NCBI GenBank assembly: GCA_035389045.1
Contig: DAOORA010000001.1
Location: forward strand, 9,458-73,457
DNA length: 64,000 nt
Direction: 5' to 3'
From: Bacteroidales bacterium
GTDB taxonomy: Bacteria; Bacteroidota; Bacteroidia; Bacteroidales; CAIWKO01
Shown piece after piece: positions 3,110 through 37,458 of the stretch. Numbering within the stretch: the stretch's first letter is position 1; the number at the start of each line of letters is the position of its first letter. The translations under genes and the position numbers were made by a program. The notes beneath the pieces are model-generated. The model searched no databases. It was not told the DNA's origin and saw only the letters and a program-made list of their open reading frames with translations.

Positions 3110-3461
3110 TACCGATTGCCAGTAGTTTAGAAATTAGAAAATCGTTTATAACTTAATATTACGCTTTTGTTTCTGTTATAAACATGAGATTTTTCTCTTA
3201 CTTTTTTGCGTGTCCAAAAAAGTAAGCAAAAAAGGACCTCCTGGCGAATGCTTCAGCCCGCTCTCAGAAAACATTGAAAATCTATGCAAAGTAGTCCTGA
3301 CGCAGCATAGCTGGTCAGGAAACCCCGCCTGTGGCGGGGCCTTTGCAGATTTTCAAATGTTTTCTGATTCACGCCACCGCCGGCCCGCACGCCAGGAAAT
3401 GCCCGCGCGCCTATTATCGGCTAAGCTATCCCGAAAAAAGCCGGATTGTTTCTCAGAAATT
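3110..3461. repeat. Copy 2 of the tandem hairpin-rich element
   Basis: Aligns base for base with copy 1 apart from a few substitutions or indels. The same three-way stem structure lies at about 3264-3367. Confidence 0.85.
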
Positions 3462-3825
3462 CATTACTATGACAAATAACACTCCTTCCATTTTGGAAAA
3501 AAATGAAGGTAAACAAAACATACGTTTCTGTTTTTGAGCAATAAAGAAGCGAAACAAAAGTTGCTGACAGTAAAAATAAACTTATTTGGTGTCTCTTGGA
3601 TTTTATCTCTTCTTAATTTTCTGAAATTATAATTGGTGTCCCAGTGGCGAAGTCAGGAAAGAGGGTGTCCCAAAATATTATTTAAATGATTTTCACCGCC
3701 TTCTTACCCCTTCCATAAAGGGTGGAAGTCGCTGAAAATCAACACCATTCAGGGACGGGGTAATGATGATTTCCAGTAAAGGCTATTTTTGAGACAGCCG
3801 CTTTTTTTCTGAAGGTACCGAAAAT

Positions 3826-5400
3826 CTATTGGTTCACGTTGTGAAGATCCTTCAGCTTTTCCCACGGGCCCAGATCATATTTGCGTATCATCTGCCGGTA
3901 CAACTCTGCATCCTTATTCAGCTTTTTGATATGTTTGTGATAGCTGACCATAGAGAGCAAATGCGAGAATCCCATGTCTACGGCTACTTTTTTTTGCCTG
4001 ATCAGGGCAATCATATACATAAAGAATCTGCGTTTGTATGGTTCCGGACGGAAAACGAACTCATTCAACAGTTTGAGAAGCAACTTAATGATAAAGCCGG
4101 TGCCTGGCCTGCCATCATTGTAAGGCTTTATAAAATATCCGTCGCCAAAAAGTATTTTTGCTTTATAATAGAGGGATTCGTAAGCATACATTTTAGAGAG
4201 TGTTTCAAGGTATTTATCGAACAACGCTATCTGCGACATCTTATAATAATGGATGCATGGAAATAACCCGCCCATCATATCCGTATCTATATCATACATC
4301 CTGCCTTCGGCAGTAAGTCGCTTCTGCAATTCAGAACCAAAAGGAGCGCCAAGAATATTAAAATTGATGTACGACAATCCCGTCCGCTGCGTAAACTCGT
4401 ACAAGCGGTCGAATTCTTCCGGTGTATCATTATCAAAACCTATAACAAATGATGCGGTGATATGTATCCCGTGGGCATGGATCTTTTTGATCGCATCTTC
4501 ATAGATCAGCGCCTCACGGTTTTGTTTTTTCTTTGTTTCAAACAGGCTGCCGGCATTCAATGATTCAAAGCCGATGAGAATATTGAAACAGCCGGCATTA
4601 TTCATTTCCGTCAGCAAATCGTCTTCTTTTGCAATTTCGATGCTCGACATGCAGCCCCATGATATGTTGAGGGGCATCAGTTCTTTCATAAGTTCGTGGG
4701 CATAACGTTTATTAGCCGTCAGGTTATCATCCACAAACAGCATCTTCCTCACCGGAAGAGATTTGATCTCCTGCACCACATTAGAAATTTCACGGTAACG
4801 CATTTTGTTCCCGAACAAATTGGTGACAAGGCAAAACTCACACTTATAAGGGCAGCCACGCGATACCTGTATCCCCACCTGGAAAACTTTTTTCATATCC
4901 ACCAAATCCCAACGGGGAAGTGGTGTCTCTTTAAAGTCGCAATACTCGTGTGTGTCGTAAATTTTCTGAAGGCATCCCTGTTCATAATCCGCCAGGCATT
5001 TCCGCCACGAACCTTCTGCTTCTCCTATCACAATAGCATCGGCATGAAGAACTGCTTCATCGGTCATAAACGAAACGTAGGGGCCTCCGATAATAACTTT
5101 TGCTCCCCGGGATCTGTACCAATCGCCTATTTCGTAGGCTCTTTTAGCCGTGGTTGCCAGGGCTGATATGCCGACTATTTCGGGAATCTCGTCTGGCAGT
5201 GACTCCAGGTCTTCATCAATGATACGAACATCATATTCCGGCGGTGTAATAGCCGCAATCATAGGCATGGCCAGTGAAAGCATGAACTTCTTTTTACCCA
5301 TCATTTTACAGAGTTCTGTCTGCCCGTAATAATTCACAAACTTCTGTCCGGGTAAGACCAGAAAGATACGTTTTCTGCTGTAGGATATTCCGCCCGTCAT
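3826..5400 (-). CDS. B12-binding domain radical SAM protein
   Basis: CX3CX2C motif SRGCPYKCEFC. The N-terminal Rossmann-like region (IFLVLPG..., VIIGGPYVSF) is typical of cobalamin-binding class B radical SAM enzymes. Confidence 0.8.
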   Translation of the reverse strand: MTGGISYSRKRIFLVLPGQKFVNYYGQTELCKMMGKKKFMLSLAMPMIAAITPPEYDVRIIDEDLESLPDEIPEIVGISALATTAKRAYEIGDWYRSRGAKVIIGGPYVSFMTDEAVLHADAIVIGEAEGSWRKCLADYEQGCLQKIYDTHEYCDFKETPLPRWDLVDMKKVFQVGIQVSRGCPYKCEFCLVTNLFGNKMRYREISNVVQEIKSLPVRKMLFVDDNLTANKRYAHELMKELMPLNISWGCMSSIEIAKEDDLLTEMNNAGCFNILIGFESLNAGSLFETKKKQNREALIYEDAIKKIHAHGIHITASFVIGFDNDTPEEFDRLYEFTQRTGLSYINFNILGAPFGSELQKRLTAEGRMYDIDTDMMGGLFPCIHYYKMSQIALFDKYLETLSKMYAYESLYYKAKILFGDGYFIKPYNDGRPGTGFIIKLLLKLLNEFVFRPEPYKRRFFMYMIALIRQKKVAVDMGFSHLLSMVSYHKHIKKLNKDAELYRQMIRKYDLGPWEKLKDLHNVNQ

Positions 5401-5403
5401 AAC

Positions 5404-6513
5404 TTAAAAATAACGAAGTGTAAAACCGGCCTGCATAAATTTACTGACCTCGGTGACAAAGCTCAGGATCATATCGTTTTCATATAATTTCTCCTCTCTC
5501 ATAATTTTATCGAGGCAAATGAACACCATAGGCGGGCCAACATAGCCCATGTCATTCATCCTGGTATAGAGCGTTTCTTTTTTAATCCCCAACTGCCCGC
5601 ACTCCTCTATGATCATTTCAGCAATATGCTTTGAAGGAAAATTCACCTGAAAATATTTTAATGCGGAGAGATCAATGTGGTAAGTTTCGATCATGCGCTT
5701 CAATCCTTTAAAAAAAACCGAACCGTCTGCATCATGAAAATGCAGGCGTAACTGCTCGTTGAACATCTGTGCCAGGTGGTGATCGCCGTGTTCAAACTCC
5801 AGTCTGGGATTCTGCCAGTAGGCAGGGCGCCTGTTGAGCATGGCTGCCGGTTTATTACCTCCTACAGATTCCATGTATACATTTTCGACGAACAGCCCTT
5901 TTTGGACTTCAGCTTTCTGTAAAATCAATGCCCCTGCCCCGTCACACAAAAAATACCTTAAAAACAACTCTTCTTTGGTAAGTAAGGGCTGGTTGTAATA
6001 TTCTGCAATAAGTTCGGAAGAAGAAATTCCCGATGATACGACCAAAGCATTATCATACCTGCCGCAGCGTATAAACTCGTATGCCACCAGCAGCGCTTTA
6101 TAGGCCGAGGTGCAATTAGCATGAATTGAAATCTCGGAACACTCCTCAATGCCAAGCGCCTCCTGTATCCGCACGCTGGCTGTAGGCATCTGATGCTGAT
6201 GTGCGCTGCCATAGGCAATAAAGCTGATCTCCTGTGGTTTCAGCCCGGCCATGTCAAGAGCTTCATGAGCCGCTTTGACCGCCATGGAGACATTGTCTTC
6301 GGTAAATTTCCGGGTATCAGGGTCAATGGCATAATGATAATAGCCGATATCGAGCATTTCTTTCATCAGCGGCCTGATGCGGGAAAGCCATTTTGCCACC
6401 GGTGCAGGGGCATCTGTTATTTCCCCGAGGTAGCTGTCGGTTTCTTCAAAAGAAACCGGCCTGCCCGGCAAAAACCTCCCTGTTCCGGTTATTTTAACCC
6501 TGTTGAACGACAT
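5404..6513 (-). CDS. 3-oxoacyl-ACP synthase III (KASIII/FabH-like) family condensing enzyme
   Basis: N-terminus VKITGTGRFLPGRPVSFEE, candidate active-site Cys context IHANCTSAYKAL, thiolase-fold length of 369 aa. Confidence 0.65.
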   Translation of the reverse strand: MSFNRVKITGTGRFLPGRPVSFEETDSYLGEITDAPAPVAKWLSRIRPLMKEMLDIGYYHYAIDPDTRKFTEDNVSMAVKAAHEALDMAGLKPQEISFIAYGSAHQHQMPTASVRIQEALGIEECSEISIHANCTSAYKALLVAYEFIRCGRYDNALVVSSGISSSELIAEYYNQPLLTKEELFLRYFLCDGAGALILQKAEVQKGLFVENVYMESVGGNKPAAMLNRRPAYWQNPRLEFEHGDHHLAQMFNEQLRLHFHDADGSVFFKGLKRMIETYHIDLSALKYFQVNFPSKHIAEMIIEECGQLGIKKETLYTRMNDMGYVGPPMVFICLDKIMREEKLYENDMILSFVTEVSKFMQAGFTLRYF

Positions 6514-6732
6514 CGTTTATATATATTTTGCCTTTATTTGTATTGGAGTTTTACTAAGAAATAACGAACATAACGTATAAAAACTTATTTTACTCTATAC
6601 TTATTTTTATTGCCGGGACAAATTTACCAAAGATCAGCAACAACTTACAATAACTGACCGTTCTTTTACACATTTCTGTTCCCTGAACTTATACATTATT
6701 CATCACAGAATGACGATTCCTGATTCATGTCC

Positions 6733-7389
6733 TCACATATATTTTCCGATATAATAATTTCTCAGTTTTGGATTATAGTTTTTATATATTTTTTCAGCGA
6801 AATCAACGGCTTTTGCCATAACTTCCTTTCTCCTTACAATCTTATCCACAAGCCCTGTTTGCCGGGCATCCTGTGCGTTCAGGTTTTTTCCCGTAAGCAT
6901 CAGCTCGATTGCAGTTTTTTTATCCGTATAATCCGAAAGATATACAGAACCTCCGCAGCCCGTCATCAGGTTATATCCTGCTTCGGGAAATCCCATGATA
7001 ATATTTTCGGCAGCAATCCGAAAATGGCACGACATGGCCAGTTCCATGGCAGAGCCCAGGCATACTCCTTTAATAGCGGCTATTACAGGTATTCCGGCCA
7101 TGTAAAACCTTTTGAATGTGCGGCTGTTGGCAATATAAAAATCTCTGGCCTGATGCGTGTTTTCTCCGTCAAACGACAGCAGGTCGCGGATGTCCGCCCC
7201 TGAGGAGAAATGCCTGCCTGTTCCGCTGATTATGAGGGCTTTCAGACGTTCATCATGGAAGGCCATATCAGACAACTCGTGGATCTCATAGAAAAAAAGT
7301 TTATTCATACTGTTGGCCGGTGGGCTGTTCAGTTCAATAAACCCGATATGATCTTCGAAACGCCAGTTGATAGTCTGATACTTTACCAT
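6733..7389 (-). CDS. Enoyl-CoA hydratase/isomerase (crotonase) family protein
   Basis: GTGRHFSSGADI oxyanion-hole motif and crotonase-like length. 7-nt overlap with the upstream paralog. Confidence 0.75.
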   Translation of the reverse strand: MVKYQTINWRFEDHIGFIELNSPPANSMNKLFFYEIHELSDMAFHDERLKALIISGTGRHFSSGADIRDLLSFDGENTHQARDFYIANSRTFKRFYMAGIPVIAAIKGVCLGSAMELAMSCHFRIAAENIIMGFPEAGYNLMTGCGGSVYLSDYTDKKTAIELMLTGKNLNAQDARQTGLVDKIVRRKEVMAKAVDFAEKIYKNYNPKLRNYYIGKYM

Positions 7390-8132
7390 ATTTCGGATTT
7401 TCTCCTTTGCGCTTCCTCAAGTGCGAGTTTGCAGAACATTCTTGTTTCTTCATGCAGGGCTTCATGCAGGGGAAGTTTATTGGCATTGTGTATGGCCTGC
7501 ATGATCGAACAGATCACATTTTTGGGCTTGGTGCTGACCATATTCTTCAGATATTTCAATGAAGCTCCCAACACATCATCATCTGAAACATAATGTACAA
7601 TGTTATATTTTAATGCTTTTTCCGCATCAATGATATCGCCTGACAATAAAAGTGAAATCGCATGATGATCTCCTGACTGCTTCACCATGCGTGCAATACC
7701 GCCAAGTCCGGGCATCAGGCCGTGGTTTATCTCCGGGAAGGCAAAAAGCGATTTGGCGGATGCAAAGCGTATGTGACACGCCATGGCAATTTCGAGGCCG
7801 CCACCCAGGCAGGCGCCGGTAATGGCAGCTACGACTGGTATTTTCAGTCCAAAGATATGATCCAGCAGTTGTGATCCGGCTGTCATCTCTTTTGTCAAAA
7901 TATCAGCATCGCAGGCGGTTTCAAAAAGTTTTTCCAGGTCGGCCCCGGCAGAAAAATGCCTGCCCGTACCCGTAATGATAACACCTTTTATGTCTTCATC
8001 TTCTGCAATACTATTCAATTTGTCCACACTAATAAATGCTGGTGATGGCAGATAATTCTGCGGAGGATTGTTTATTCTGATGACAGCAATACACCCATTC
8101 TTTTCGACAACGACATTTGCAGTTTCTTTCAA
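7383..8132 (-). CDS. Enoyl-CoA hydratase/isomerase (crotonase) family protein
   Basis: GTGRHFSAGADL and ACLGGGLEIAMACH motifs. Confidence 0.8.
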   Translation of the reverse strand: MKETANVVVEKNGCIAVIRINNPPQNYLPSPAFISVDKLNSIAEDEDIKGVIITGTGRHFSAGADLEKLFETACDADILTKEMTAGSQLLDHIFGLKIPVVAAITGACLGGGLEIAMACHIRFASAKSLFAFPEINHGLMPGLGGIARMVKQSGDHHAISLLLSGDIIDAEKALKYNIVHYVSDDDVLGASLKYLKNMVSTKPKNVICSIMQAIHNANKLPLHEALHEETRMFCKLALEEAQRRKSEIW

Positions 8133-8527
8133 TTCATGCTGTTTTTGGTGAGTAAAACTTCATATTCGGGGGATATTCCGCAAGGTATCCTTTCACTGTT
8201 TAACGGTATTGTTTTTACGGTAGTGTGGGAGAGTTTCTGTCCGTTGTCAGCATTGAACATATATTGCTTAAAGACAATATAGGGGCCTGAGAACTCCACT
8301 TTGCTTTTTATCAGGATGTTATCAAACAAGCGGGCTTCTTTAGAATAACGGATATTGATTTCTGTTACTACCAATAAAATTTTTTCTGACTTTAATTTTT
8401 CGAGCAGACCTGTTTCACGCATGATTTCCCATCTTGCCTGCTCATAATAATTCAGATAAACAGCATTGTTCACATGGTCGTAGGAGTCCAACTCATAACC
8501 TCTGACGGATAAGCGATATTCGAACAT
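8129..8527 (-). CDS. Acyl-CoA/acyl-ACP thioesterase, 4HBT (YbgC-like hotdog) family
   Basis: YELDSYDHVNNAVYLNYYEQARWEIM matches the hotdog thioesterase signature. 132 aa. Confidence 0.75.
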   Translation of the reverse strand: MFEYRLSVRGYELDSYDHVNNAVYLNYYEQARWEIMRETGLLEKLKSEKILLVVTEINIRYSKEARLFDNILIKSKVEFSGPYIVFKQYMFNADNGQKLSHTTVKTIPLNSERIPCGISPEYEVLLTKNSMN

Positions 8528-8548
8528 TTTTTCTGGTAAGATATTATT

Positions 8549-8953
8549 TTAGAGTTTGGGGGCCAATCCGATGAGCTCATCCACCCTGGATTTCGCTATC
8601 TGCGACCATTTCGGGTCAATGAATCTGTTTCCATCCCAGGAAAAGTCCACACGGTAAAAATTTTCATTCATAAAAGTCAGTTTTGATTTTGCATCCGGTG
8701 TATGGACAATAAACATCATTTTGCCAGGGTCAATTGTAAAGGCGAAACCGATCAATGTTGCAAGAGGTGCGCAGAAGTTGGTCACTGAGGTTCCCGGGTT
8801 TTCGGCATATAATTCAGTAGCAATAACCACGGTGTGCTGTTCATTCTTTACAATCTTCAACCCGCAACGTGAGGGTACATCCCACTGTCCTTTAAAATCA
8901 TAAACCTCATCGAAATAATCCGAATTGATATCCTTGTTGAAATGTTTGATCAT
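8549..8953 (-). CDS. Hypothetical protein (134 aa) embedded in the biosynthetic cluster
   Basis: Clean ORF in the same orientation and tightly spaced with its neighbours. No motif recognised. Confidence 0.5.
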   Translation of the reverse strand: MIKHFNKDINSDYFDEVYDFKGQWDVPSRCGLKIVKNEQHTVVIATELYAENPGTSVTNFCAPLATLIGFAFTIDPGKMMFIVHTPDAKSKLTFMNENFYRVDFSWDGNRFIDPKWSQIAKSRVDELIGLAPKL

Positions 8954-8974
8954 AGTTATTAAGTAGAATATGTT

Positions 8975-10240
8975 TTACCTGTTAACTTTTTTACCGAAAG
9001 ATCTGTTGGCCAATTCTTCGCGAACAGGCTTATACGTGCCATTGGCAATTTCTTTCATGATCACTGTCCTGAAAAGTTTGAACATTTTTTCAGATTGTGA
9101 TTCATCTTTGTAAAAAGTATCCCATGCATAGTGATACAATTCCTGCAGGCGTTCAGGCGTCATATGCTTTGGTTGGATAACCACTTTTCCTGCATTGAAA
9201 TTGTTCCAGTCGTGATCAATGATCCTGTTCTGCCTGAGCAGGTCGTCATAAGCTTTCGTATGAGGAAAAGGTGTAAGAACTGTGAATTCGGCCAGGTCGA
9301 GGTTTATCTCCAGCAGGAAATCGATAAGGCGTTTGATATCATCTTCGGTATGGTCATCGGTTCCGAGCAGTATGGTGCCTTCGACGGCAATACCATGATC
9401 GTGGTAGCGTTTTATCCTGTCGCGTATATAATCGGAAGTGTCAAATACGGCCTGATAAACAAACCATGCACCGGCCTGTGCTGCCAGGTCGAGCACCTCG
9501 TCGTCATTTTCTATGGGATGTGAACACCAGTTTTTCTTAAACGGAATCATCTCACGGAAAAGGTCCAGTTCCCATTGTTTGTCCTGAGCAAGAGAATTAT
9601 CGACGATAAAAAGCCTGTTGTTATCAATGGTTGCCAATTCTTCAACGACGCGGTCAACAGGCCTGGGACGGAAACATTTTCCGCCGAGGTATGCCACTGC
9701 ACAGGGATAACAATTATACTTACACCCGCGTGAGGCATGAAACAGGTCGACCATGCGCACCCCTTTGTGATAATATTTCTCCTTATTGAGAATATCGCGC
9801 CGGGCAGGGCCTATAGTATTAATATCGGGATGAACAGCAAGATAATTATATACTTTCTGAAGTTTATCATTCCTGAAATCATCGAAAACTTTTTCGAGGC
9901 GGCCTTCTGCTTCTCCCAGAAATATGGAGTCGGCATATTCCAGTGTTTCTTCCGCATGGAGCATAGTAGAGATACCTCCGAAGATCACTTTTTTTCCGCG
10001 TTTGTGGTATTCCGATGCTATCTGCCAGCCGCGTTTTATCTGGCCGGTAAGCATCATCGAAATGCCAATAAAATCGGCATCATCATCAAAAGTAAGTTCA
10101 TCCACGTTCTCATCAACAAATTCAATATGAACATAAGCAGGCAGCGCTGCAGCCATCACAACCGGCCCGTGGGGCGGAAGGTTGAACGTGGTCTGCCCTT
10201 CGAGTTTTTCCCATTTAGGATAAATAAGTTTGAATTTCAT
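8975..10240 (-). CDS. B12-binding domain radical SAM protein (second copy)
   Basis: CX3CX2C motif SRGCKYNCYPC. N-terminal B12-binding-like region (VIFGGISTMLH). Confidence 0.8.
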   Translation of the reverse strand: MKFKLIYPKWEKLEGQTTFNLPPHGPVVMAAALPAYVHIEFVDENVDELTFDDDADFIGISMMLTGQIKRGWQIASEYHKRGKKVIFGGISTMLHAEETLEYADSIFLGEAEGRLEKVFDDFRNDKLQKVYNYLAVHPDINTIGPARRDILNKEKYYHKGVRMVDLFHASRGCKYNCYPCAVAYLGGKCFRPRPVDRVVEELATIDNNRLFIVDNSLAQDKQWELDLFREMIPFKKNWCSHPIENDDEVLDLAAQAGAWFVYQAVFDTSDYIRDRIKRYHDHGIAVEGTILLGTDDHTEDDIKRLIDFLLEINLDLAEFTVLTPFPHTKAYDDLLRQNRIIDHDWNNFNAGKVVIQPKHMTPERLQELYHYAWDTFYKDESQSEKMFKLFRTVIMKEIANGTYKPVREELANRSFGKKVNR

Positions 10241-10248
10241 ATGGTCGT

Positions 10249-11934
10249 TTATTCGTATTTAATAGTTTTCGATTTACAGGCCTCCATTCTTTTTTTCAGA
10301 AGTTCCCTGTCAGCCAGGTATGGTATTGATTTTTCCAATGCTTTCCGATAGTATTCAAGCGCTCTGCCATAACTTTTATTTTTATAATAATATTCACCGG
10401 CAAGATAATAAGGTTGATAAAATTCAGGATTGAGCCCTGTCATTTTTTCCGCATCACCTGCGTTTGCCTGTGTTATATCTGAATTCAGATGATCAACAAA
10501 CGCATCCCTGATTTTTTTATATTCCGCTATCTTGCCGGAATAATCAGACAACATTACTGAATCGGGCAGCAAAGATAATTCAAATTCATACATCTCGGTA
10601 TTTTGCATGAGACATTCTTTTTTCTGAAATATCTTATTTAAATCATAACAAACATAGGTTCCTGCCTGATACGGTGTTGTGGAAACCCAAACGAGGAGTT
10701 GTTCCGGTTTAAAGATCACAGAATGGTGGGCAATAAACTGATTCACTGCAAGTTCATTGGTATATCCTATTTTTTTATCATCCATTCCGTCGGGATTGCG
10801 CAACAATGCAGCAGCGCTGTTTTCATCCATCGGGCTGCTATTCCTGATCAACTGCTCCACCCTTTTAAAACGATATACGGTAGGTGTTTCATTCATTTGC
10901 ATTATATTCAACTTATCGGATGCATATTCAGTACTCTGAAAATGATTGGTACAGATAATATAATTTGAATCATTCTCAAACAGGACCGTCTTTTCAGGGC
11001 TTTTTTCGATGATGCAGGCTTTTTTATCTTTGGCTGAACCTATCATAAAAGATTCAGAAACAAAAACCTGGTAACGCCCGGCAATCCCGAAGGCCTCACG
11101 GATATTCCGGGCATATTGTAATATATGTTTGGCCACCAGCGACACCGGACATGCCGAATGTAAAGGTACCTGCGATTTGGCCGCGTTGATTGTCACGGTC
11201 AGCCCCTGGTCGTTCATGCCGGAAACAACGCCGGTCATCCCGCCCCAGGAGATCATCATGTAGTTATAACCCGAATCAGGTTTTACGAATGAGATTATTT
11301 TATCTTCAGCAAAATCATCGTTGATAAAAAAATCAAAGTTTCTGCCTACCAGCAGGGATGAGTCTTTTGATCGTTCGTCCCAGACGGCAAAAGATGTGCA
11401 GCCCACCAGGTGATAATTCTGCATCATGTGGCCTATGTCATGGGCAGCATGATAATTCAGCATCCGCTGATAGTTGCTTCCAATATATTTATATTGGTCA
11501 TCCGCATATTTAGAAACACCAAATATTTCCTGCAGGAATTCCGGCTTGATATAGGTGTCGATCTTTCTGTTAAAAATATCGATAATAAAATTCAGAAAAC
11601 GCCGGTAACTTTTTGATGGCACAAATTTGTTGATCTGCCGGACAAAGATCTTTTCCTGCTTTCGTGATAAGTCACGGGTAAGTTTGCCTGCGGCCAGACC
11701 TCTGTAATACGCATCACCTTCGGTATACAATTCATACAGTCCTGTCCTGCTTTTATGGAACCACGATTTTCCGCAATACACCAGGGAATCGCCGGAAGAT
11801 ACTGTTTTAAAGCTGCTGGTATCTGTATACGGCACCTGTGGAGGGTCAATGGTTTTACTAGAATTGATCAGTATTATGGCTATGACCGAGATCAAAGCGA
11901 CAGAAAAAAAAACTGTGATCAGTAATTTTTTCAT
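10249..11934 (-). CDS. C45-family (Ntn, acyltransferase/hydrolase-like) protein with N-terminal TM helix and C-terminal TPR
   Basis: LVGCTSFAVWD...GRNFDF nucleophile context. C-terminal YYLAGEYYYKNKSYGRALEYYRKALEK is a TPR. Paralog of 18545-20209. Confidence 0.6.
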   Translation of the reverse strand: MKKLLITVFFSVALISVIAIILINSSKTIDPPQVPYTDTSSFKTVSSGDSLVYCGKSWFHKSRTGLYELYTEGDAYYRGLAAGKLTRDLSRKQEKIFVRQINKFVPSKSYRRFLNFIIDIFNRKIDTYIKPEFLQEIFGVSKYADDQYKYIGSNYQRMLNYHAAHDIGHMMQNYHLVGCTSFAVWDERSKDSSLLVGRNFDFFINDDFAEDKIISFVKPDSGYNYMMISWGGMTGVVSGMNDQGLTVTINAAKSQVPLHSACPVSLVAKHILQYARNIREAFGIAGRYQVFVSESFMIGSAKDKKACIIEKSPEKTVLFENDSNYIICTNHFQSTEYASDKLNIMQMNETPTVYRFKRVEQLIRNSSPMDENSAAALLRNPDGMDDKKIGYTNELAVNQFIAHHSVIFKPEQLLVWVSTTPYQAGTYVCYDLNKIFQKKECLMQNTEMYEFELSLLPDSVMLSDYSGKIAEYKKIRDAFVDHLNSDITQANAGDAEKMTGLNPEFYQPYYLAGEYYYKNKSYGRALEYYRKALEKSIPYLADRELLKKRMEACKSKTIKYE

Positions 11935-13436
11935 TACGGGTTACAACTTTTTATTTTCCCGACAAGGTATTCCAGTCCTAACAACTCTGAACAGGTGGTC
12001 ACGGAACCTATGGTCACGCCAAGCACGCCGTGCAGAATGATATTTTGTCCTGTAAGAAAAAGGTTGGGTATTTTGGTCCGTGGCGATATCAATGTTTTCA
12101 ACGGGTCGTTGCAGTCTCTGAGGACGCCGTATAACGAGCCATCCACCGTACCGGTATAATCACGGTAGGTGAGCGGTGAAGAGGTGTAATACTTATGGAT
12201 ACATTTCCGGAATCCCGGATAACGGAGTTCAACAAGATCGAGCATCTGTCCGGCTTTTTGCTGTTTGAAATCCAGGTAATCATTACTGCGCTTTCCTACC
12301 ACCGTGTTTTCCCACTTTTTCACATCATCAATATTCATATATGACATAACAGTAGCATTACAGGCATATTTGCTCCCGGAAGAAGAGGCCGGTGTTATCA
12401 GAAGAATATTTCCCGGCCAGTTCTGATCAGCTTTTTCATTTGACAACCATACATTTTCATTTCTGTAGAAATACAGGTTATGGTTGAGATATTCAAAGGA
12501 ATCCGGTTTAAAAACGATATAAAGCGTAAAATTAGATGTGGTATTTTCGAGGGTTTTGATTCGCTGGCGATATACACTGCGTAAGAATTTTTCATCCACC
12601 ATACCGATGGTTTGGGCCGGATGGATGGCTGAAATAAAATATCGTGCATCAATCACTTCATCATTGGCAAGTGCTACAGAAGTGAGTCTATTATTATTAA
12701 AAACAAATTTCTCAGCCCTTGCCGAGGTAATTATTTTCCCGCCGTTTAGAATGATCTTAGCAGCTAAAATATCGGCTATTTGGGAACTTCCGTCCACCAC
12801 CTTCCAGGAGCTTTCAATAAAAGAATTATTGACGAGTGCATGAACATAAAGGGGCGTTTTTTCAGGAACACCGGCATATAATGAATTGGTTCCGGCCAGC
12901 ACACGCTGAAGTTTTTTATTGTCTGTGATGGAGGTAAAATAGTCGTAAGCATTTTCCCGGAAAAATTGCAGTTCATTGAGGTGCAGGTTCTTATAACTCA
13001 GGTTATATAAGGGGAAATGCTCACATATTTCATTTAATTTTCTGATATAGTGCACCAAAGCATCTTTCTCATCCGGAAAATACTCCATCAGTCTGCGGAT
13101 AAAATTTTCATGACCCATCGCCAGGTGATACTCCATGGGATCATTTGCAAAACCAATGACATCAAACGCCTCCTGATCCATTCTTTGCAACCTGAGTTTA
13201 TCCATCAGGCCGAAATAGGTAAAATACTGGTTCAGAATCTGTCCTTTGTCAAGGCCGCCGATATAATGAATGCCCGTATCAAAAACACAGTTGTCGCGTT
13301 TGAAATTCTGCAGGCAGCCGCCAATCTGCGAATGTTGTTCGACAATACATACGTTATATCCTTCGGAACTTAAAATATACCCGCACTCTAAACCACCCAG
13401 GCCACTGCCGATGATCACCACATCGTAACTACTCAT
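11934..13436 (-). CDS. NAD(P)/FAD-dependent oxidoreductase, phytoene desaturase (CrtI-like) family
   Basis: Dinucleotide-binding YDVVIIGSGLGGLECGYILSSEGYNVCIVEQHSQIGG. 500 aa. Confidence 0.75.
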   Translation of the reverse strand: MSSYDVVIIGSGLGGLECGYILSSEGYNVCIVEQHSQIGGCLQNFKRDNCVFDTGIHYIGGLDKGQILNQYFTYFGLMDKLRLQRMDQEAFDVIGFANDPMEYHLAMGHENFIRRLMEYFPDEKDALVHYIRKLNEICEHFPLYNLSYKNLHLNELQFFRENAYDYFTSITDNKKLQRVLAGTNSLYAGVPEKTPLYVHALVNNSFIESSWKVVDGSSQIADILAAKIILNGGKIITSARAEKFVFNNNRLTSVALANDEVIDARYFISAIHPAQTIGMVDEKFLRSVYRQRIKTLENTTSNFTLYIVFKPDSFEYLNHNLYFYRNENVWLSNEKADQNWPGNILLITPASSSGSKYACNATVMSYMNIDDVKKWENTVVGKRSNDYLDFKQQKAGQMLDLVELRYPGFRKCIHKYYTSSPLTYRDYTGTVDGSLYGVLRDCNDPLKTLISPRTKIPNLFLTGQNIILHGVLGVTIGSVTTCSELLGLEYLVGKIKSCNP

Positions 13437-23756: not shown

Positions 23757-23785
23757 ATAGCAAAACGCAAAGGAAGTGTGGTTTG
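23757..23785 (-). promoter_or_regulatory. Shared dyad motif copy 1 (atagcaaaacgcaa-N-tgtggtttg), adjacent to a TAatTTTG -7 box
   Basis: One of four copies of ATAGCAAAACGCAA(N5-6)TG(C/T)GGTTT in the window. On the coding (minus) strand it reads ...TTGCGTTTTGCTATCCTAATTTTG, about 30 nt before the ATG at 23726. Confidence 0.5.
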
Positions 23786-33519: not shown

Positions 33520-33879
33520 ATGCAAAAAAAAAATCTTTTAAAGTTAGATTTAAGCGAATACAAAAAGAAAATAAAAGCGCTGCCCTTAACAAAGATTAAT
33601 AAATTTGATAATTTACTATCAGACCTTGCAAACTATGCTTATGACACGTATGAGTATGTAATAGAATTACCGGACAACATAGAGAATATTTCAAAAGACC
33701 AAGCGTCAAAAATGATAGAAGATTTGAATGAACTTAATAAGCAGGTAACACCACTGATGGACATTTTGTGTGATATGGATTATGAGAGCAAATACATGGA
33801 CAGGGCAACAGAAGTATTAGGAGGTATTGAAGATGATATCCCCGAACTTATTAAATTGCTGAGCCGTAAGTTAAAATAG
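33520..33879 (+). CDS. Hypothetical protein (119 aa), paralog of 36304-36693
   Basis: Collinear similarity: LDLSEY/LDFSEF, KFDNLL/RFENFL, DILCDMDYESKYMDR/DILYKINYDSKNMDR. An A10 tract covers codons 2-5. Confidence 0.55.
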   Translation: MQKKNLLKLDLSEYKKKIKALPLTKINKFDNLLSDLANYAYDTYEYVIELPDNIENISKDQASKMIEDLNELNKQVTPLMDILCDMDYESKYMDRATEVLGGIEDDIPELIKLLSRKLK

Positions 33880-33896: not shown

Positions 33897-35012
33897 TTAT
33901 TGAGGCGGACAATCAAAAAGTCTCTCTTTGCAAAATCCGAAAAGTGCAGGATCGCCTAGGTTGTCTTTCAAGGAATATGAACATGTTGTACATCTGAACC
34001 AACTGAAAGATTCTTTCTTTTTGAAAATGATATCATCATACTCTTTTTTATAAATTACAAGGGTTTCATGCCCGCAGCAGGGACATTTCTTTATTGCGTG
34101 ATAATATTTGTATTTTGTTTCACATTCAGCATATCTGATGAATCTTCCAATTGGATTTTCATAATACGGCTCATGATATAATATGTTATTTTTTAAAGTT
34201 AAGTCCAGCCCATAAGCCGCACGACCCAATTCTTTAAGGTGCGCCAATTTAAGAAGTTTCACGCGGAGTTCATCAATTTTGGCATCATCATAAAAATCAT
34301 CGGTGTCAAATTTAATAGTATTGATCCCGTCAATTATTTTAATACCGGTAAATGTCTCAAAGTAATGCGGTTTGAAGCCATTAAGAATTGTTTTATCGTT
34401 TTCGAATACTTTTACAACCAAAGGAATAAGTTTTTGTGAAACCAGATAATCGAAGAGTAAAATATTAGGAATGGTTTTCCCATTATGCATTATCCTGTTG
34501 CGCCATCGGGCAAGATAATCCAATGAATCATCAATTAAAAACCTGAATTGATTTGCGACAGCATATTGAGTTTTGTGAAGATTCTTATCATAATACCTTA
34601 CGGCTTCTTTAAAACGTTCATAAGCACTGTTAAACTCTACAGATTCCATTCTTTCTGCCTCTGCCTCATTGTTGCAATATTTTATAGCATCCTTTTCTTT
34701 GCGAGGAAATTTTACTGCAAGAAAAGGGTTAATGCGATTTAAAATATCTTTTAACAGAAGTTCAAAAAACCTGTGAAAACTCAATATGGTTTGAACAATG
34801 CAGTCTGAATTATAAAAATCAAATGAAAGTGTATCGTGCTTCCACATTTTAAAATCAAGAAGCAAATGATACGAGTTTTTTATGTTTTTTACAGTTTGAA
34901 AATAATTAATGAACGCATCATCCAATGATTGATAGTATAGCGGAGGCGTATGCTCTGCATCTTTTGACAACTGACATTCGTTTTTTTTAAAGAAATCTGA
35001 GTTTGTATCCAT
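33897..35012 (-). CDS. HEPN-domain protein with C-terminal zinc ribbon
   Basis: Rx4H motif in LARWRNRIMHNG. C-terminal CPCCGH...CTTCSY is a four-Cys ribbon. 371 aa. Confidence 0.55.
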   Translation of the reverse strand: MDTNSDFFKKNECQLSKDAEHTPPLYYQSLDDAFINYFQTVKNIKNSYHLLLDFKMWKHDTLSFDFYNSDCIVQTILSFHRFFELLLKDILNRINPFLAVKFPRKEKDAIKYCNNEAEAERMESVEFNSAYERFKEAVRYYDKNLHKTQYAVANQFRFLIDDSLDYLARWRNRIMHNGKTIPNILLFDYLVSQKLIPLVVKVFENDKTILNGFKPHYFETFTGIKIIDGINTIKFDTDDFYDDAKIDELRVKLLKLAHLKELGRAAYGLDLTLKNNILYHEPYYENPIGRFIRYAECETKYKYYHAIKKCPCCGHETLVIYKKEYDDIIFKKKESFSWFRCTTCSYSLKDNLGDPALFGFCKERLFDCPPQ

Positions 35013-35064: not shown

Positions 35065-35154
35065 CCACTCCGAAAAGTATGATTTTCTGCGACTTCCCAT
35101 TGGGATTAAGGACAAAAAGTCGCAGGATAAGATAAACGAAGCTTTTCGGAGTGG
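35065..35154 (-). promoter_or_regulatory. Long nested hairpin in the leader of the HEPN gene
   Basis: Perfect 13-bp arms ccactccgaaaag / cttttcggagtgg enclose 9-bp arms ctgcgactt / aagtcgcag. Located between the promoter-like motif (35303-35330) and the ATG at 35012. Confidence 0.5.
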
Positions 35155-35302
35155 GTTCAATGATAGTATTCATGTGTAAATAATTCTTAGAAGTCAATTC
35201 AAATCTGTATTGAAAAAATACCAGGCAGGTAAAATCATCCCAATAACATTGTTAACGACCTCCTGCCCGGCTAAGTAACAAAACGACACCAGCAAATTTA
35301 TT

Positions 35303-35330
35303 ATAGCAAAACGCAATGTATTTGCTTTTT
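35303..35330 (-). promoter_or_regulatory. Shared dyad motif copy 3, followed on the minus strand by a TAAATTTG -7 box
   Basis: atagcaaaacgcaatgtatttgcttttt. The minus strand reads TTGCGTTTTGCTATAATAAATTTG. Confidence 0.5.
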
Positions 35331-35996: not shown

Positions 35997-36304
35997 AGTT
36001 TTTTATTATCCCTTTTAGGTTTATTCATTTTATTAAGTTTCCTTATGAGTTCAAATGTTGGTTTAGGAAAAAGCTCATAGTCGCACAAAAGATGCAACCA
36101 TGCCTGGGTTACCGCCTGAGGATCATCGAATAATAATTCTACGGATTTGATTTTGGCAAGGTTGTTATCTGCAAAACGGTGTAAGTGCAAATATTTGCCT
36201 GTATTCAAATCCATAAAAGCATCCACACTGGGGTTGTGATAGCCGGTGAGGAAATTGCAAAGGATTCTTTCAGCGGAACCAGTTATGTAATTTTTGTTGT
36301 TCAT
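35993..36304 (-). CDS. Hypothetical protein (103 aa)
   Basis: Clean ORF with overlapping stop/start on both sides. Confidence 0.45.
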   Translation of the reverse strand: MNNKNYITGSAERILCNFLTGYHNPSVDAFMDLNTGKYLHLHRFADNNLAKIKSVELLFDDPQAVTQAWLHLLCDYELFPKPTFELIRKLNKMNKPKRDNKKL

Positions 36305-36693
36305 TAATCATCATTAAGAGCTTGTCGTTTTTCCAAGGTATTATTAATGTACTTAATGAATTTATCCGATTCATCTTTCAATATTTCAAGCATGTTAATG
36401 ATACGGTCCATGTTTTTACTGTCGTAATTAATTTTATATAGAATATCAAGCGCAGATGAAGACTGGCTATAAATCCGGCCAAGGTCAACAAGCATTTGCT
36501 TCGATTTGTTTTTTGTTACAGGAGATATGACATAGGGCAAAGTATCAATAAGATAATCGTGTGTGTCACCAATTTTATTCTGAAAATTGAACAGAAAATT
36601 CTCAAAGCGAATACCTCCAGCGATTCTGATATGTTTTAATGACCTGATAAATTCTGAAAAGTCAAGTGCCAGGTGTTCGGAATATGGTTTCAT
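36304..36693 (-). CDS. Hypothetical protein (129 aa), paralog of 33520-33879
   Basis: See 33520-33879. Confidence 0.55.
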   Translation of the reverse strand: MKPYSEHLALDFSEFIRSLKHIRIAGGIRFENFLFNFQNKIGDTHDYLIDTLPYVISPVTKNKSKQMLVDLGRIYSQSSSALDILYKINYDSKNMDRIINMLEILKDESDKFIKYINNTLEKRQALNDD

Positions 36694-36705: not shown

Positions 36706-37458
36706 TTATTGCTCCGTATTCAATTGTTTTTTAACGAAATTCATTATTTCCTGTGAGATACTGGATTTGTCAATCTCTTTTTCCCAACGTTCCCTGACAC
36801 TTTCATCAATTTCCTGTTCCTTAATATAATTTAATGCCAGCTCTCTGCATATTCCGAAAAAGAGAGCAGAAATCTGTGATTGTTGCGTTGCATACTGGCC
36901 GAGCCGGTGGGCAAACATGCCATTCAAAAATTTTGGAGGCATTTTCAGGTTAGAATCAGACTCAGCGCATTTTTCAAAGATGGCATGCTCGGCAGTAATT
37001 ACATTTTTTTGCTCAAACTGAGACCTGATTAAGGCATCAGCAATAAGGATACCTGTTTTTATGCCTTCAAGTTTAGTTCTTTCTTTTCTTTCTTCGGGGG
37101 TTTCGGTAAAACCTGAAGGTTCAATTTTCTGATTTAACAATTCAGAATCTGTTAAGGGATTTGAGGAGAAACCGTTTTCAGTGTTCATGTCCTCAGGATT
37201 TGTTTTTGCCATAGTTTTAAATTTTAATTTGTTATTATTTGGGTTTATTACTGTTTCTTTTTCGAATAAATTTAGTTCAGGAACAATATCATTAAAATTG
37301 GCTATAGGATTTGGGGACGGCTTGGCTTTTCTGAATTTTTCACCAAAGCAAAGTTTACACATTGCCGACAAACCATCTTTCATCTTCCTGTTGTTATAGA
37401 AGTCCTCAGAGGGTTTCCATTTGCTACAAGAAGTACATTTTTTTTGTGATACATTCAT
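36706..37458 (-). CDS. Hypothetical protein with N-terminal CxxC...CxxC zinc-ribbon (250 aa)
   Basis: KKCTSCSKWKPSEDFYNNRKMKDGLSAMCKLCFGEKF. The remainder is unassigned. Confidence 0.45.
   Translation of the reverse strand: MNVSQKKCTSCSKWKPSEDFYNNRKMKDGLSAMCKLCFGEKFRKAKPSPNPIANFNDIVPELNLFEKETVINPNNNKLKFKTMAKTNPEDMNTENGFSSNPLTDSELLNQKIEPSGFTETPEERKERTKLEGIKTGILIADALIRSQFEQKNVITAEHAIFEKCAESDSNLKMPPKFLNGMFAHRLGQYATQQSQISALFFGICRELALNYIKEQEIDESVRERWEKEIDKSSISQEIMNFVKKQLNTEQ

Follow-up and report, generated by a model that had tools for sequence, protein, structure and literature searches.

A Candidate Stand-Alone HEPN Ribonuclease with a C-Terminal Zinc Ribbon in a Low-GC Island of a Bacteroidales Bacterium

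What might be the role of a solitary bacterial gene whose product joins a helical, HEPN-like domain to a zinc ribbon? The question is raised by a gene in a 64,000-nucleotide stretch of the genome of a Bacteroidales bacterium (GenBank assembly GCA_035389045.1, contig DAOORA010000001.1, positions 9,458 to 73,457 of the forward strand), which we refer to as the window and whose first letter is position 1 in all coordinates below. The gene, which is present as one copy in its own genome, encodes P0001, a protein of 371 amino acids (aa), and is located in a foreign, defense-rich island of 28–36% guanine-plus-cytosine (GC) content that starts at a tRNA-Arg gene and has flanks of 40–46% GC. By analogy with characterized systems, we lean modestly toward the reading that P0001 is a latent, single-protein ribonuclease (RNase) of the HEPN family, that is, an auto-inhibited abortive-infection effector that would have been acquired with the low-GC island.

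Domain Architecture of P0001

The open reading frame (ORF) runs uninterrupted on the minus strand from an ATG at 35012 to a stop codon at 33897. A preliminary description, made from the sequence alone, had reported this ORF, an Rx4H motif in the middle of a helical protein, and a pair of C-terminal cysteine motifs, and had interpreted the product as a stand-alone HEPN-type RNase effector fused to a four-cysteine (Cys4) zinc ribbon. The ORF and the motifs are as described: LARWRNRIMHNG corresponds to residues 167–178, in which R171 and H176 form the Rx4H motif, and the cysteine motifs are CPCCGH (310–315) and CTTCSY (341–346), each with a CxxC knuckle. The motifs are not chance occurrences, given that R[ND]xxxH is kept by 190 of 191 full-length relatives (179 with RN and 11 with RD) and both CxxC knuckles by 190 of 191. 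A full-length AlphaFold2 (AF2) model (mean pLDDT 92.5, pTM 0.90) is all-α up to residue 300 and then forms a three-stranded zinc ribbon, in keeping with the helical character noted earlier. The interpretation as a stand-alone effector is supported, in that both HEPN signatures, fold matches to HEPN toxins, and the lack of a conserved partner gene agree with it. The features of the gene and its product are as follows, with the helices and motifs of the N-terminal domain listed as candidates.

33897..35012, minus strand: gene of the 371-aa HEPN-like and zinc-ribbon protein P0001 (ORF and translation)
34377..34949, minus strand: N-terminal helical domain, candidate HEPN core, residues 22–212 (AF2 secondary structure, Foldseek)
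Residues 27–51: candidate HEPN helix 1 (AF2)
Residues 69–94: candidate HEPN helix 2, which carries E84-LLL-K88 (AF2)
34749..34763, minus strand: E84-x3-K88, the Ex3[KR] acidic motif of HEPN helix 2 (conservation)
Residues 95–160: helical insert in the HEPN core (AF2)
Residues 162–177: candidate HEPN helix 3, which ends in R171-N-R-I-M-H176 (AF2)
34485..34502, minus strand: R171-N-R-I-M-H176, candidate catalytic motif of the R-[N/D]-x3-H type, located where helix 162–177 ends (conservation, profiles)
Residues 178–183: loop after helix 3 (AF2)
Residues 184–205: candidate HEPN helix 4 (AF2)
34218..34235, minus strand: K260-E-L-G-R-A265, conserved helix of the middle module, residues 207–300
33963..34106, minus strand: predicted C-terminal Cys4 zinc ribbon, residues 303–350, with knuckles C310/C313 and C341/C344 (invariant cysteines, AF2)

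A Conserved Family without a Name

P0001 escapes curated models: searches against Pfam, NCBIfam, PADLOC, and PHROGs gave no match at E ≤ 1 except weak ones of zinc-ribbon type on the tail, a Pfam scan of 62 relatives gave no HEPN match at E ≤ 0.01, and sequence searches of the PDB, using the single sequence and profiles, returned nothing for the helical part and only generic zinc ribbons for the tail. Relatives are nevertheless numerous. A word-indexed search yielded 89 clusters at 90% identity, all of approximately 350–410 aa and all named "hypothetical," which is the label given to every family member by PGAP and JGI. An exhaustive phmmer search of 1.84 billion representatives yielded 255 clusters at 50% identity (E ≤ 0.001), a number that is a lower bound on the size of the family. 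The labeled members belong to Bacteroidota (Paludibacteraceae, Chitinophagaceae, Crocinitomicaceae, Flavobacteriales, Cyclobacteriaceae, and others), and distant members (24–27% identity), annotated as "hypothetical," are encoded on plasmids of Clostridium estertheticum and Paenibacillus polymyxa. The distribution is rare and patchy, since only one of 400 other Bacteroidota species genomes sampled has the gene, and this as a fragment. No account of this architecture in Bacteroides defense was found in the literature.

A multiple sequence alignment of 62 members, extending to approximately 20% identity, reveals nine invariant residues: L30, E84, R171, H176, K260, C310, C313, C341, and C344. Five more (N172, G178, E261, R264, and A265) are conserved in at least 90% of these sequences, and K88 is invariant across 47 closer members. 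Conservation is highest in helix 69–94, helices 161–206, the KELGRA helix, and both knuckles, and lowest in the loop 53–68, the linker 271–286, and the ribbon hairpin 318–338.

Two sequences at the margin of the family deserve mention. The metagenome protein P0210 (556 aa) joins the N-terminal half of the family (approximately residues 20–242, the HEPN core included) to a C-5 cytosine DNA methylase that begins at position 74 of the methylase model; the junction reflects a genuine fusion or else a chimeric gene call. A 379-aa ORF (L060) with a weak match to HEPN_RiboL-PSP was considered and placed outside the family, its motif being C-terminal.

The N-Terminal Domain Resembles HEPN Toxins

HEPN domains are defined by an Rx4–6H motif with a polar residue (N, D, or H) after the arginine, and their helix 2 carries a further acidic residue, usually as part of Ex3[KR]; the fold is a four-helix up-down bundle in which helices 2 and 3 are often separated by an insert (Anantharaman et al. 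2013, PMC3710099). The predicted layout of P0001 together with its conserved motifs agrees with all of these sequence and topology features. The invariant R171 and H176 are accompanied by the polar N172, E84 and K88 both fall inside the predicted helix 69–94, and in the DSSP assignment of the predicted structure the Rx4H motif lies at the end of helix 162–177, which is followed by the loop 178–183 and helix 184–205.

Fold comparison, which had been suggested earlier as a check on the HEPN assignment, gave matches that are coherent and weak. A Foldseek search of the PDB with the full-length model returned nothing significant, with the HEPN toxin 5yep_B at rank 19, and neither did a search of BFVD. 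Coherent matches appeared only with a model of the excised domain (residues 22–212, pLDDT 86.7): among 350,542 PDB chains, the top 14 matches are all HepT HEPN toxins, at E values of 1–3 and with a target-normalized TM score of 0.53 for the best, both weak values. These matches derive from two independent systems, those of Shewanella (5yep, 6m6w, and 7bxo) and Aphanizomenon (7ae2, 7ae6, 7ae8, and 7ae9). Profile comparison points in the same direction. When the family was compared by hhalign with alignments of five HEPN families built from Bacteroidota genomes, the P values were 0.0007 (Swt1), 0.003 (Abi_2), 0.005 (RiboL-PSP), 0.007 (DUF4145), and 0.007 (HepT), as compared with 0.21–0.48 for reversed-template controls, and the motif of each of the five families falls exactly on R171–H176. 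The hhalign probabilities are at most 26% and concern the region around the motif only. No fold or profile result is significant singly, and these results are partly motif-driven; the HEPN call therefore relies on the concordance of weak signals with the motifs. Taking the weak fold and profile signals together with the invariant residues, we conclude with good confidence that the N-terminal domain of P0001 belongs to the HEPN superfamily.

The lack of a significant HEPN match (Foldseek E ≥ 1 and the low hhalign probabilities) would also be accounted for if the domain were HEPN-like only, belonging to a non-catalytic nucleic acid-binding or regulatory protein in which the Rx4H motif has a structural or ligand-binding role, and HEPN domains devoid of RNase activity do exist (PMC3710099). 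However, such inactive domains have typically lost the arginine or the histidine (PMC3710099), whereas the R, N, and H of the motif and the helix-2 glutamate are invariant or nearly so in at least 190 members, and the sole coherent set of fold matches consists of HEPN toxins. We give very little credence to a non-catalytic protein and retain a candidate RNase active site.

The Middle Module and the Zinc Ribbon

The HEPN core is connected to the ribbon by a helical module (residues 207–300) that is like nothing known; its conserved KELGRA helix contains the invariant K260 together with E261, R264, and A265. The C-terminal region, a putative metal-binding part, is arranged as a zinc ribbon of the Cys4 class should be: a CxxC knuckle lies on either side of a hairpin within a predicted three-stranded sheet (AF2 strands 304–308, 318–327, and 332–341). 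A profile of the ribbon gives weak matches (E = 0.013–0.12) to the zinc ribbons of Nop10, eL42, RPA12, and L37Ae. The β-hairpin between the knuckles varies in both sequence and length, and the spacing of the knuckles ranges from 13 to 44 residues among the 191 full-length members.

Gene Neighborhoods and the Search for a Partner

We surveyed the gene neighborhoods of the family by fetching 26 loci from 185,579 species genomes and clustering the ORFs within 8 kb. Among 25 loci there is no recurrent partner family beyond pairs of related loci, and the most widely shared neighbor family occurs in three loci. The neighbors of P0001 in the window, namely a winged helix–turn–helix (wHTH) protein, an XRE protein, and proteins of 119, 219, 103, 129, and 250 aa, have no tblastn homolog within 8 kb in 28 other loci. 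The small ORFs that adjoin other family members share no relationship; they comprise a lipoprotein gene and junk ORFs. No conserved partner gene was thus found by ORF clustering over 25 loci, by tblastn with the window neighbors against 28 loci, or by inspection of the small downstream ORFs. The preliminary description was accurate in stating that no MNT-type or antitoxin gene is adjacent: no nucleotidyltransferase match is found among the window neighbors, and this domain is absent from the 25 most frequent Pfam families among 118 neighbors of the family. Its two proposals for a regulator, the structured leader of the gene and the convergent wHTH and 119-aa pair, are both unsupported, the former because the leader hairpin is a dispersed repeat and the latter because neither protein has a homolog near the 28 other loci.

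These findings bear directly on the possibility that P0001 is the toxin of a toxin–antitoxin (TA) system with an addiction or stress role, whose antitoxin has gone unrecognized, being either a small protein that evolves fast or an RNA encoded in cis. HepT TA toxins are the best structural matches of P0001, the gene of the 119-aa protein converges on that of P0001 at a distance of 17 nucleotides (nt) from its stop codon, the leader is strongly structured (z = −6.1), and PemK TA toxins are encoded near two family loci. Against this reading, no neighbor is conserved in 25 loci, the small ORFs beside other members are unrelated, the 119-aa and wHTH proteins are peculiar to this locus among those compared, and the leader hairpin recurs elsewhere in the genome. 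In addition, the tyrosine of the HepT motif Rx4HxY is missing from P0001, which reads H176-N-G, and nucleotidyltransferases are not among the frequent neighbors. We regard a TA toxin as unlikely and prefer an effector that operates without a partner.

A role in anti-phage defense is the most likely one in view of genomic context and rarity. The surroundings of family members are in many cases defense islets. One family locus has TIR/ThsB and PemK as neighbors and another has FRG and PemK; further neighbors include a UvrD-like helicase and a DUF4238 protein (in a locus that also has a radical-SAM gene), an nSTAND protein, and pAgo, AbiEi, PD-T7-4, AbiJ, and GajB-like genes, with the PADLOC PD-T7-4 model matching two neighbors of other family loci. 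One plasmid locus contains an annotated HEPN protein and an integrase. These PADLOC and Pfam tallies are raw and have no background rate.

Housekeeping genes (such as those for RNR, Ddl, and an MFS transporter) surround several members, as would be expected if P0001 were a cellular RNase or RNA-binding protein, engaged in stress-induced RNA turnover or in RNA processing through its ribbon, and not an immune effector. Such a role would fit the nucleic acid binding that this general class of zinc ribbon carries out in ribosomal proteins and in those of RNA polymerase. A cellular function is nevertheless difficult to reconcile with an extremely sparse distribution (the single fragment in 400 genomes), with a gene that is in a low-GC island here and plasmid-borne in unrelated phyla, and with the recurrence of defense and TA genes as neighbors. 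We consider a housekeeping function improbable and favor an immune one.

The island suggests another alternative, in which P0001 would be the guard RNase of an adjacent restriction system, similar to the anticodon nucleases PrrC and RloC, that is silenced by the complex of Type I M and S subunits with McrBC and freed once restriction is disabled by a phage. The P0001 gene lies approximately 0.7 kb from an operon encoding XRE and putative HsdM, HsdS, and McrBC-type proteins and has a promoter- or operator-like motif in common with three other transcription units of the island; solo HEPN genes are known inside restriction–modification (R-M) operons (PMC3710099), and the relative P0210 is joined to, or lies next to, a C-5 DNA methylase. 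Across the family, however, R-M genes are not conserved neighbors and many members are far from any R-M gene, and P0001 lacks the ABC-ATPase domain of PrrC and RloC. A guard function tied to the neighboring restriction genes is rather improbable, and we retain the reading of P0001 as an autonomous effector.

Several observations were made on neighboring genes. In two related Cyclobacteriaceae metagenome-assembled genomes (loci L014, approximately 3300–10650, and L020, approximately 4500–12670), the family member overlaps the start and stop codons of its neighbors in a run that encodes a radical-SAM protein, a UvrD-like ATPase, a 419-aa protein of unknown function, the HEPN and zinc-ribbon protein, and a DUF4238 protein; this run is possibly a branch-specific multi-gene defense cassette. 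In the window, the helical proteins of 119 aa (33520–33879, plus strand) and 129 aa (36304–36693, minus strand) are paralogs (32% identity, E = 1e-18) that match no family and flank the P0001 gene in oppositely oriented units. The 250-aa protein (36706–37458, minus strand) is encoded by the first gene of a four-gene operon and has an N-terminal CxxC...CxxC segment that matches the endonuclease VII and Lar-like zinc-binding families of PHROG (E = 5e-9 to 1e-7).

The Leader Region

The 324-bp gap upstream of the gene, whose strong predicted folding is noted above, is a composite of three elements, and Rfam gave no match over 32.8–37.8 kb.

35293..35330, minus strand: island-specific promoter- or operator-like motif (a dyad, TTGCGTTTTGCTAT, and a TAAATTTG box), which aligns at four places in the window
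35213..35271, minus strand: long hairpin with a U6 run after it, resembling a terminator when read on the coding strand, and unrepeated elsewhere in the genome (folding)
35065..35154, no strand assigned: nested hairpin of approximately 100 nt, a dispersed palindromic repeat with copies on other contigs

The first element, a motif of approximately 38 nt, precedes four transcription units on the minus strand (at 23757, 26301, 35303, and 37499), and its core, CNTTGCGTTTTGCTAT, is present at exactly four sites of the 4.46-Mb genome, always in the island and on the same strand. The −7 consensus of Bacteroidetes promoters is TAnnTTTG, and the TAAATTTG that ends the motif fits it. Judged by its sequence, the motif looks like an island-specific promoter or operator, which is perhaps read by the XRE or wHTH protein of the island. 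The promoter-like motif that had been attributed to the P0001 gene is thus real and has four genomic copies; the idea that it is the gene's own promoter is weakened by the terminator-like hairpin that lies between the two. Possible roles of this hairpin are to terminate the four-gene operon upstream, to attenuate transcription initiated at the motif, or to close an RNA of approximately 70 nt.

The third element has 13-bp outer arms and 9-bp inner arms and is found in at least 13 copies of 82–90% identity on other contigs (among them L028–L034), where the copies are sharp-ended and have unrelated flanks. It looks like a repeat of the repetitive extragenic palindromic (REP) or miniature inverted-repeat transposable element (MITE) type, and its copy number rules it out as a gene-specific riboregulator. 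A type IX retron, which combines HEPN and wHTH proteins with a reverse transcriptase and a noncoding RNA, was also considered; it is excluded by the lack of a reverse-transcriptase match in the eight ORFs scanned (32.9–37.5 kb) and by the nature of the structured RNA as a dispersed repeat.

A Proposed Mechanism and Its Significance

We infer that P0001 would be an auto-inhibited, dimeric RNase activated by a phage trigger, which the ribbon would sense. In the mechanism that we propose, the active site would be located in the N-terminal four-helix HEPN core (approximately residues 22–212) and would include E84, R171, N172, and H176. Other HEPN RNases cut single-stranded RNA at a composite, metal-independent site to which each of two paired subunits contributes its R-x4-H motif, and P0001 would probably do likewise. 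The C-terminal part, composed of the helical module with the KELGRA helix and the Cys4 ribbon with its variable hairpin, is posited to be the regulatory or sensor part, which would keep the RNase off in uninfected cells and turn it on upon binding a phage-derived protein or nucleic acid. The ensuing cleavage of RNA would stop translation and result in abortive infection, and no antitoxin would be required.

Several observations weigh against this proposal and explain our caution. The fold matches have E ≥ 1 throughout, the hhalign matches are of low probability and limited to the surroundings of the motif, and no curated HEPN model (Pfam, NCBIfam, PADLOC, or PHROG) matches P0001 even at E ≤ 1. 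Several family loci are situated among housekeeping genes, and the neighbor tallies on the other side are uncorrected counts. Finally, tblastn against 50,697 phage records found no homolog, which leaves no signal of prophage cargo.

If the proposal is confirmed, at least 255 clusters at 50% identity would constitute a defense family missed by all current annotation and defense-finder models, and P0001 would offer a single-gene candidate system from the uncultured anaerobic Bacteroidales, whose phage defenses are little tested. It would also provide a second, independently assembled coupling of a zinc ribbon to a HEPN RNase, and would help to sort the general features of systems of the RAZR type, described below, such as a ribbon sensor and a HEPN dimer effector, from those specific to RAZR.

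Comparison with Known Systems

P0001 does not exemplify a new principle, stand-alone HEPN effectors in defense islands being already well known; what is new is a sizeable, well-conserved family with an architecture of its own that is named in no database. Both ingredients were cataloged in a 2013 survey, which lists HEPN solo genes in R-M operons and contexts as well as proteins with an N-terminal HEPN domain and a C-terminal zinc ribbon, Npun_R5629 and Plim_2023, both counted with its Abi2/Swt1-like clade (PMC3710099), and RAZR demonstrates one mechanism of this sort; P0001 is most likely a known kind of protein in a new arrangement. Proteins of the Plim_2023 type differ from P0001 in having two transmembrane helices between the domains, whereas the AF2 model of P0001 predicts none.

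Among single-gene abortive-infection systems, AbiD/AbiF, AbiU2, AbiV, and ApeA share with P0001 a HEPN RNase effector (a candidate one in P0001) and a location in defense islands and beside R-M systems. P0001 matches none of their Pfam or PADLOC models, however, and none of these proteins has the helical module and zinc ribbon of P0001; ApeA has instead a β-rich N-terminal domain. The Abi2/Swt1-like clade gives the best hhalign results of the five families (HEPN_Swt1 with P = 0.0007 over 54 columns, followed by Abi_2), although the corresponding Pfam models, PF18731 and PF07751, match none of 62 family members.

The HepT toxins of HEPN-MNT systems (Shewanella SO_3166, PDB 5yep/6m6w/7bxo; Aphanizomenon, 7ae2–7ae9) are the best structural match to the N-terminal domain. 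P0001 departs from them in lacking an MNT partner, in being three times larger, in having a zinc ribbon, and in failing to match the HepT-like Pfam model. The tyrosine of the HepT motif Rx4HxY is the site of AMPylation, and P0001 reads RNRIMHNG at this point; given that no tyrosine is found two residues after the histidine, AMPylation control of the HepT type cannot apply to P0001.

The closest parallel is RAZR (ring-activated zinc-finger RNase; PD-T7-4) of Escherichia coli UMB1727, a one-protein abortive-infection RNase composed of a Cys4 zinc ribbon and a divergent HEPN domain (DUF4145), the dimers of which cleave RNA after activation (Zhang et al. 2026, Nature, PMC13017515). The zinc finger of RAZR binds ring-shaped phage proteins, sets specificity, and is the most variable part of the protein, and its HEPN domain was recognized only through remote similarity to the HEPN toxin 7AE6 (PMC13017515). 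P0001 likewise appears to unite a Cys4 ribbon and a divergent HEPN domain in one protein that has no partner gene, the ribbon hairpin is one of the most weakly conserved segments of its family, and 7ae6 is among the top fold matches of its domain. The differences are equally clear. In RAZR the ribbon is N-terminal and the HEPN domain C-terminal, an order that is reversed in P0001, and P0001 is approximately 150 aa longer, with an additional helical module (207–300) and a 60-residue insert in the HEPN core. P0001 has an Rx4H motif with N after R, as compared with the wider spacing of R146...H154 in RAZR; it has no match to DUF4145 (PF13643), with hhalign reaching P = 0.007 over only 29 columns, and no match to the PADLOC PD-T7-4 model at E ≤ 1, a model that works, having matched two neighbors at other loci. 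No RAZR chain is present among the 50 fold matches listed. P0001 is thus at most an analog of RAZR, and not a member of that family. As a tentative extension, and with less than even confidence, we suggest that the family may comprise convergent one-protein immune sensors in Bacteroidota and Bacillota, in which the HEPN domain would be held inactive and the variable ribbon hairpin would bind a phage protein assembly. If this is true, the RAZR principle has been reinvented with the opposite domain order and from an unrelated HEPN lineage, in a form invisible to current defense-finding models.

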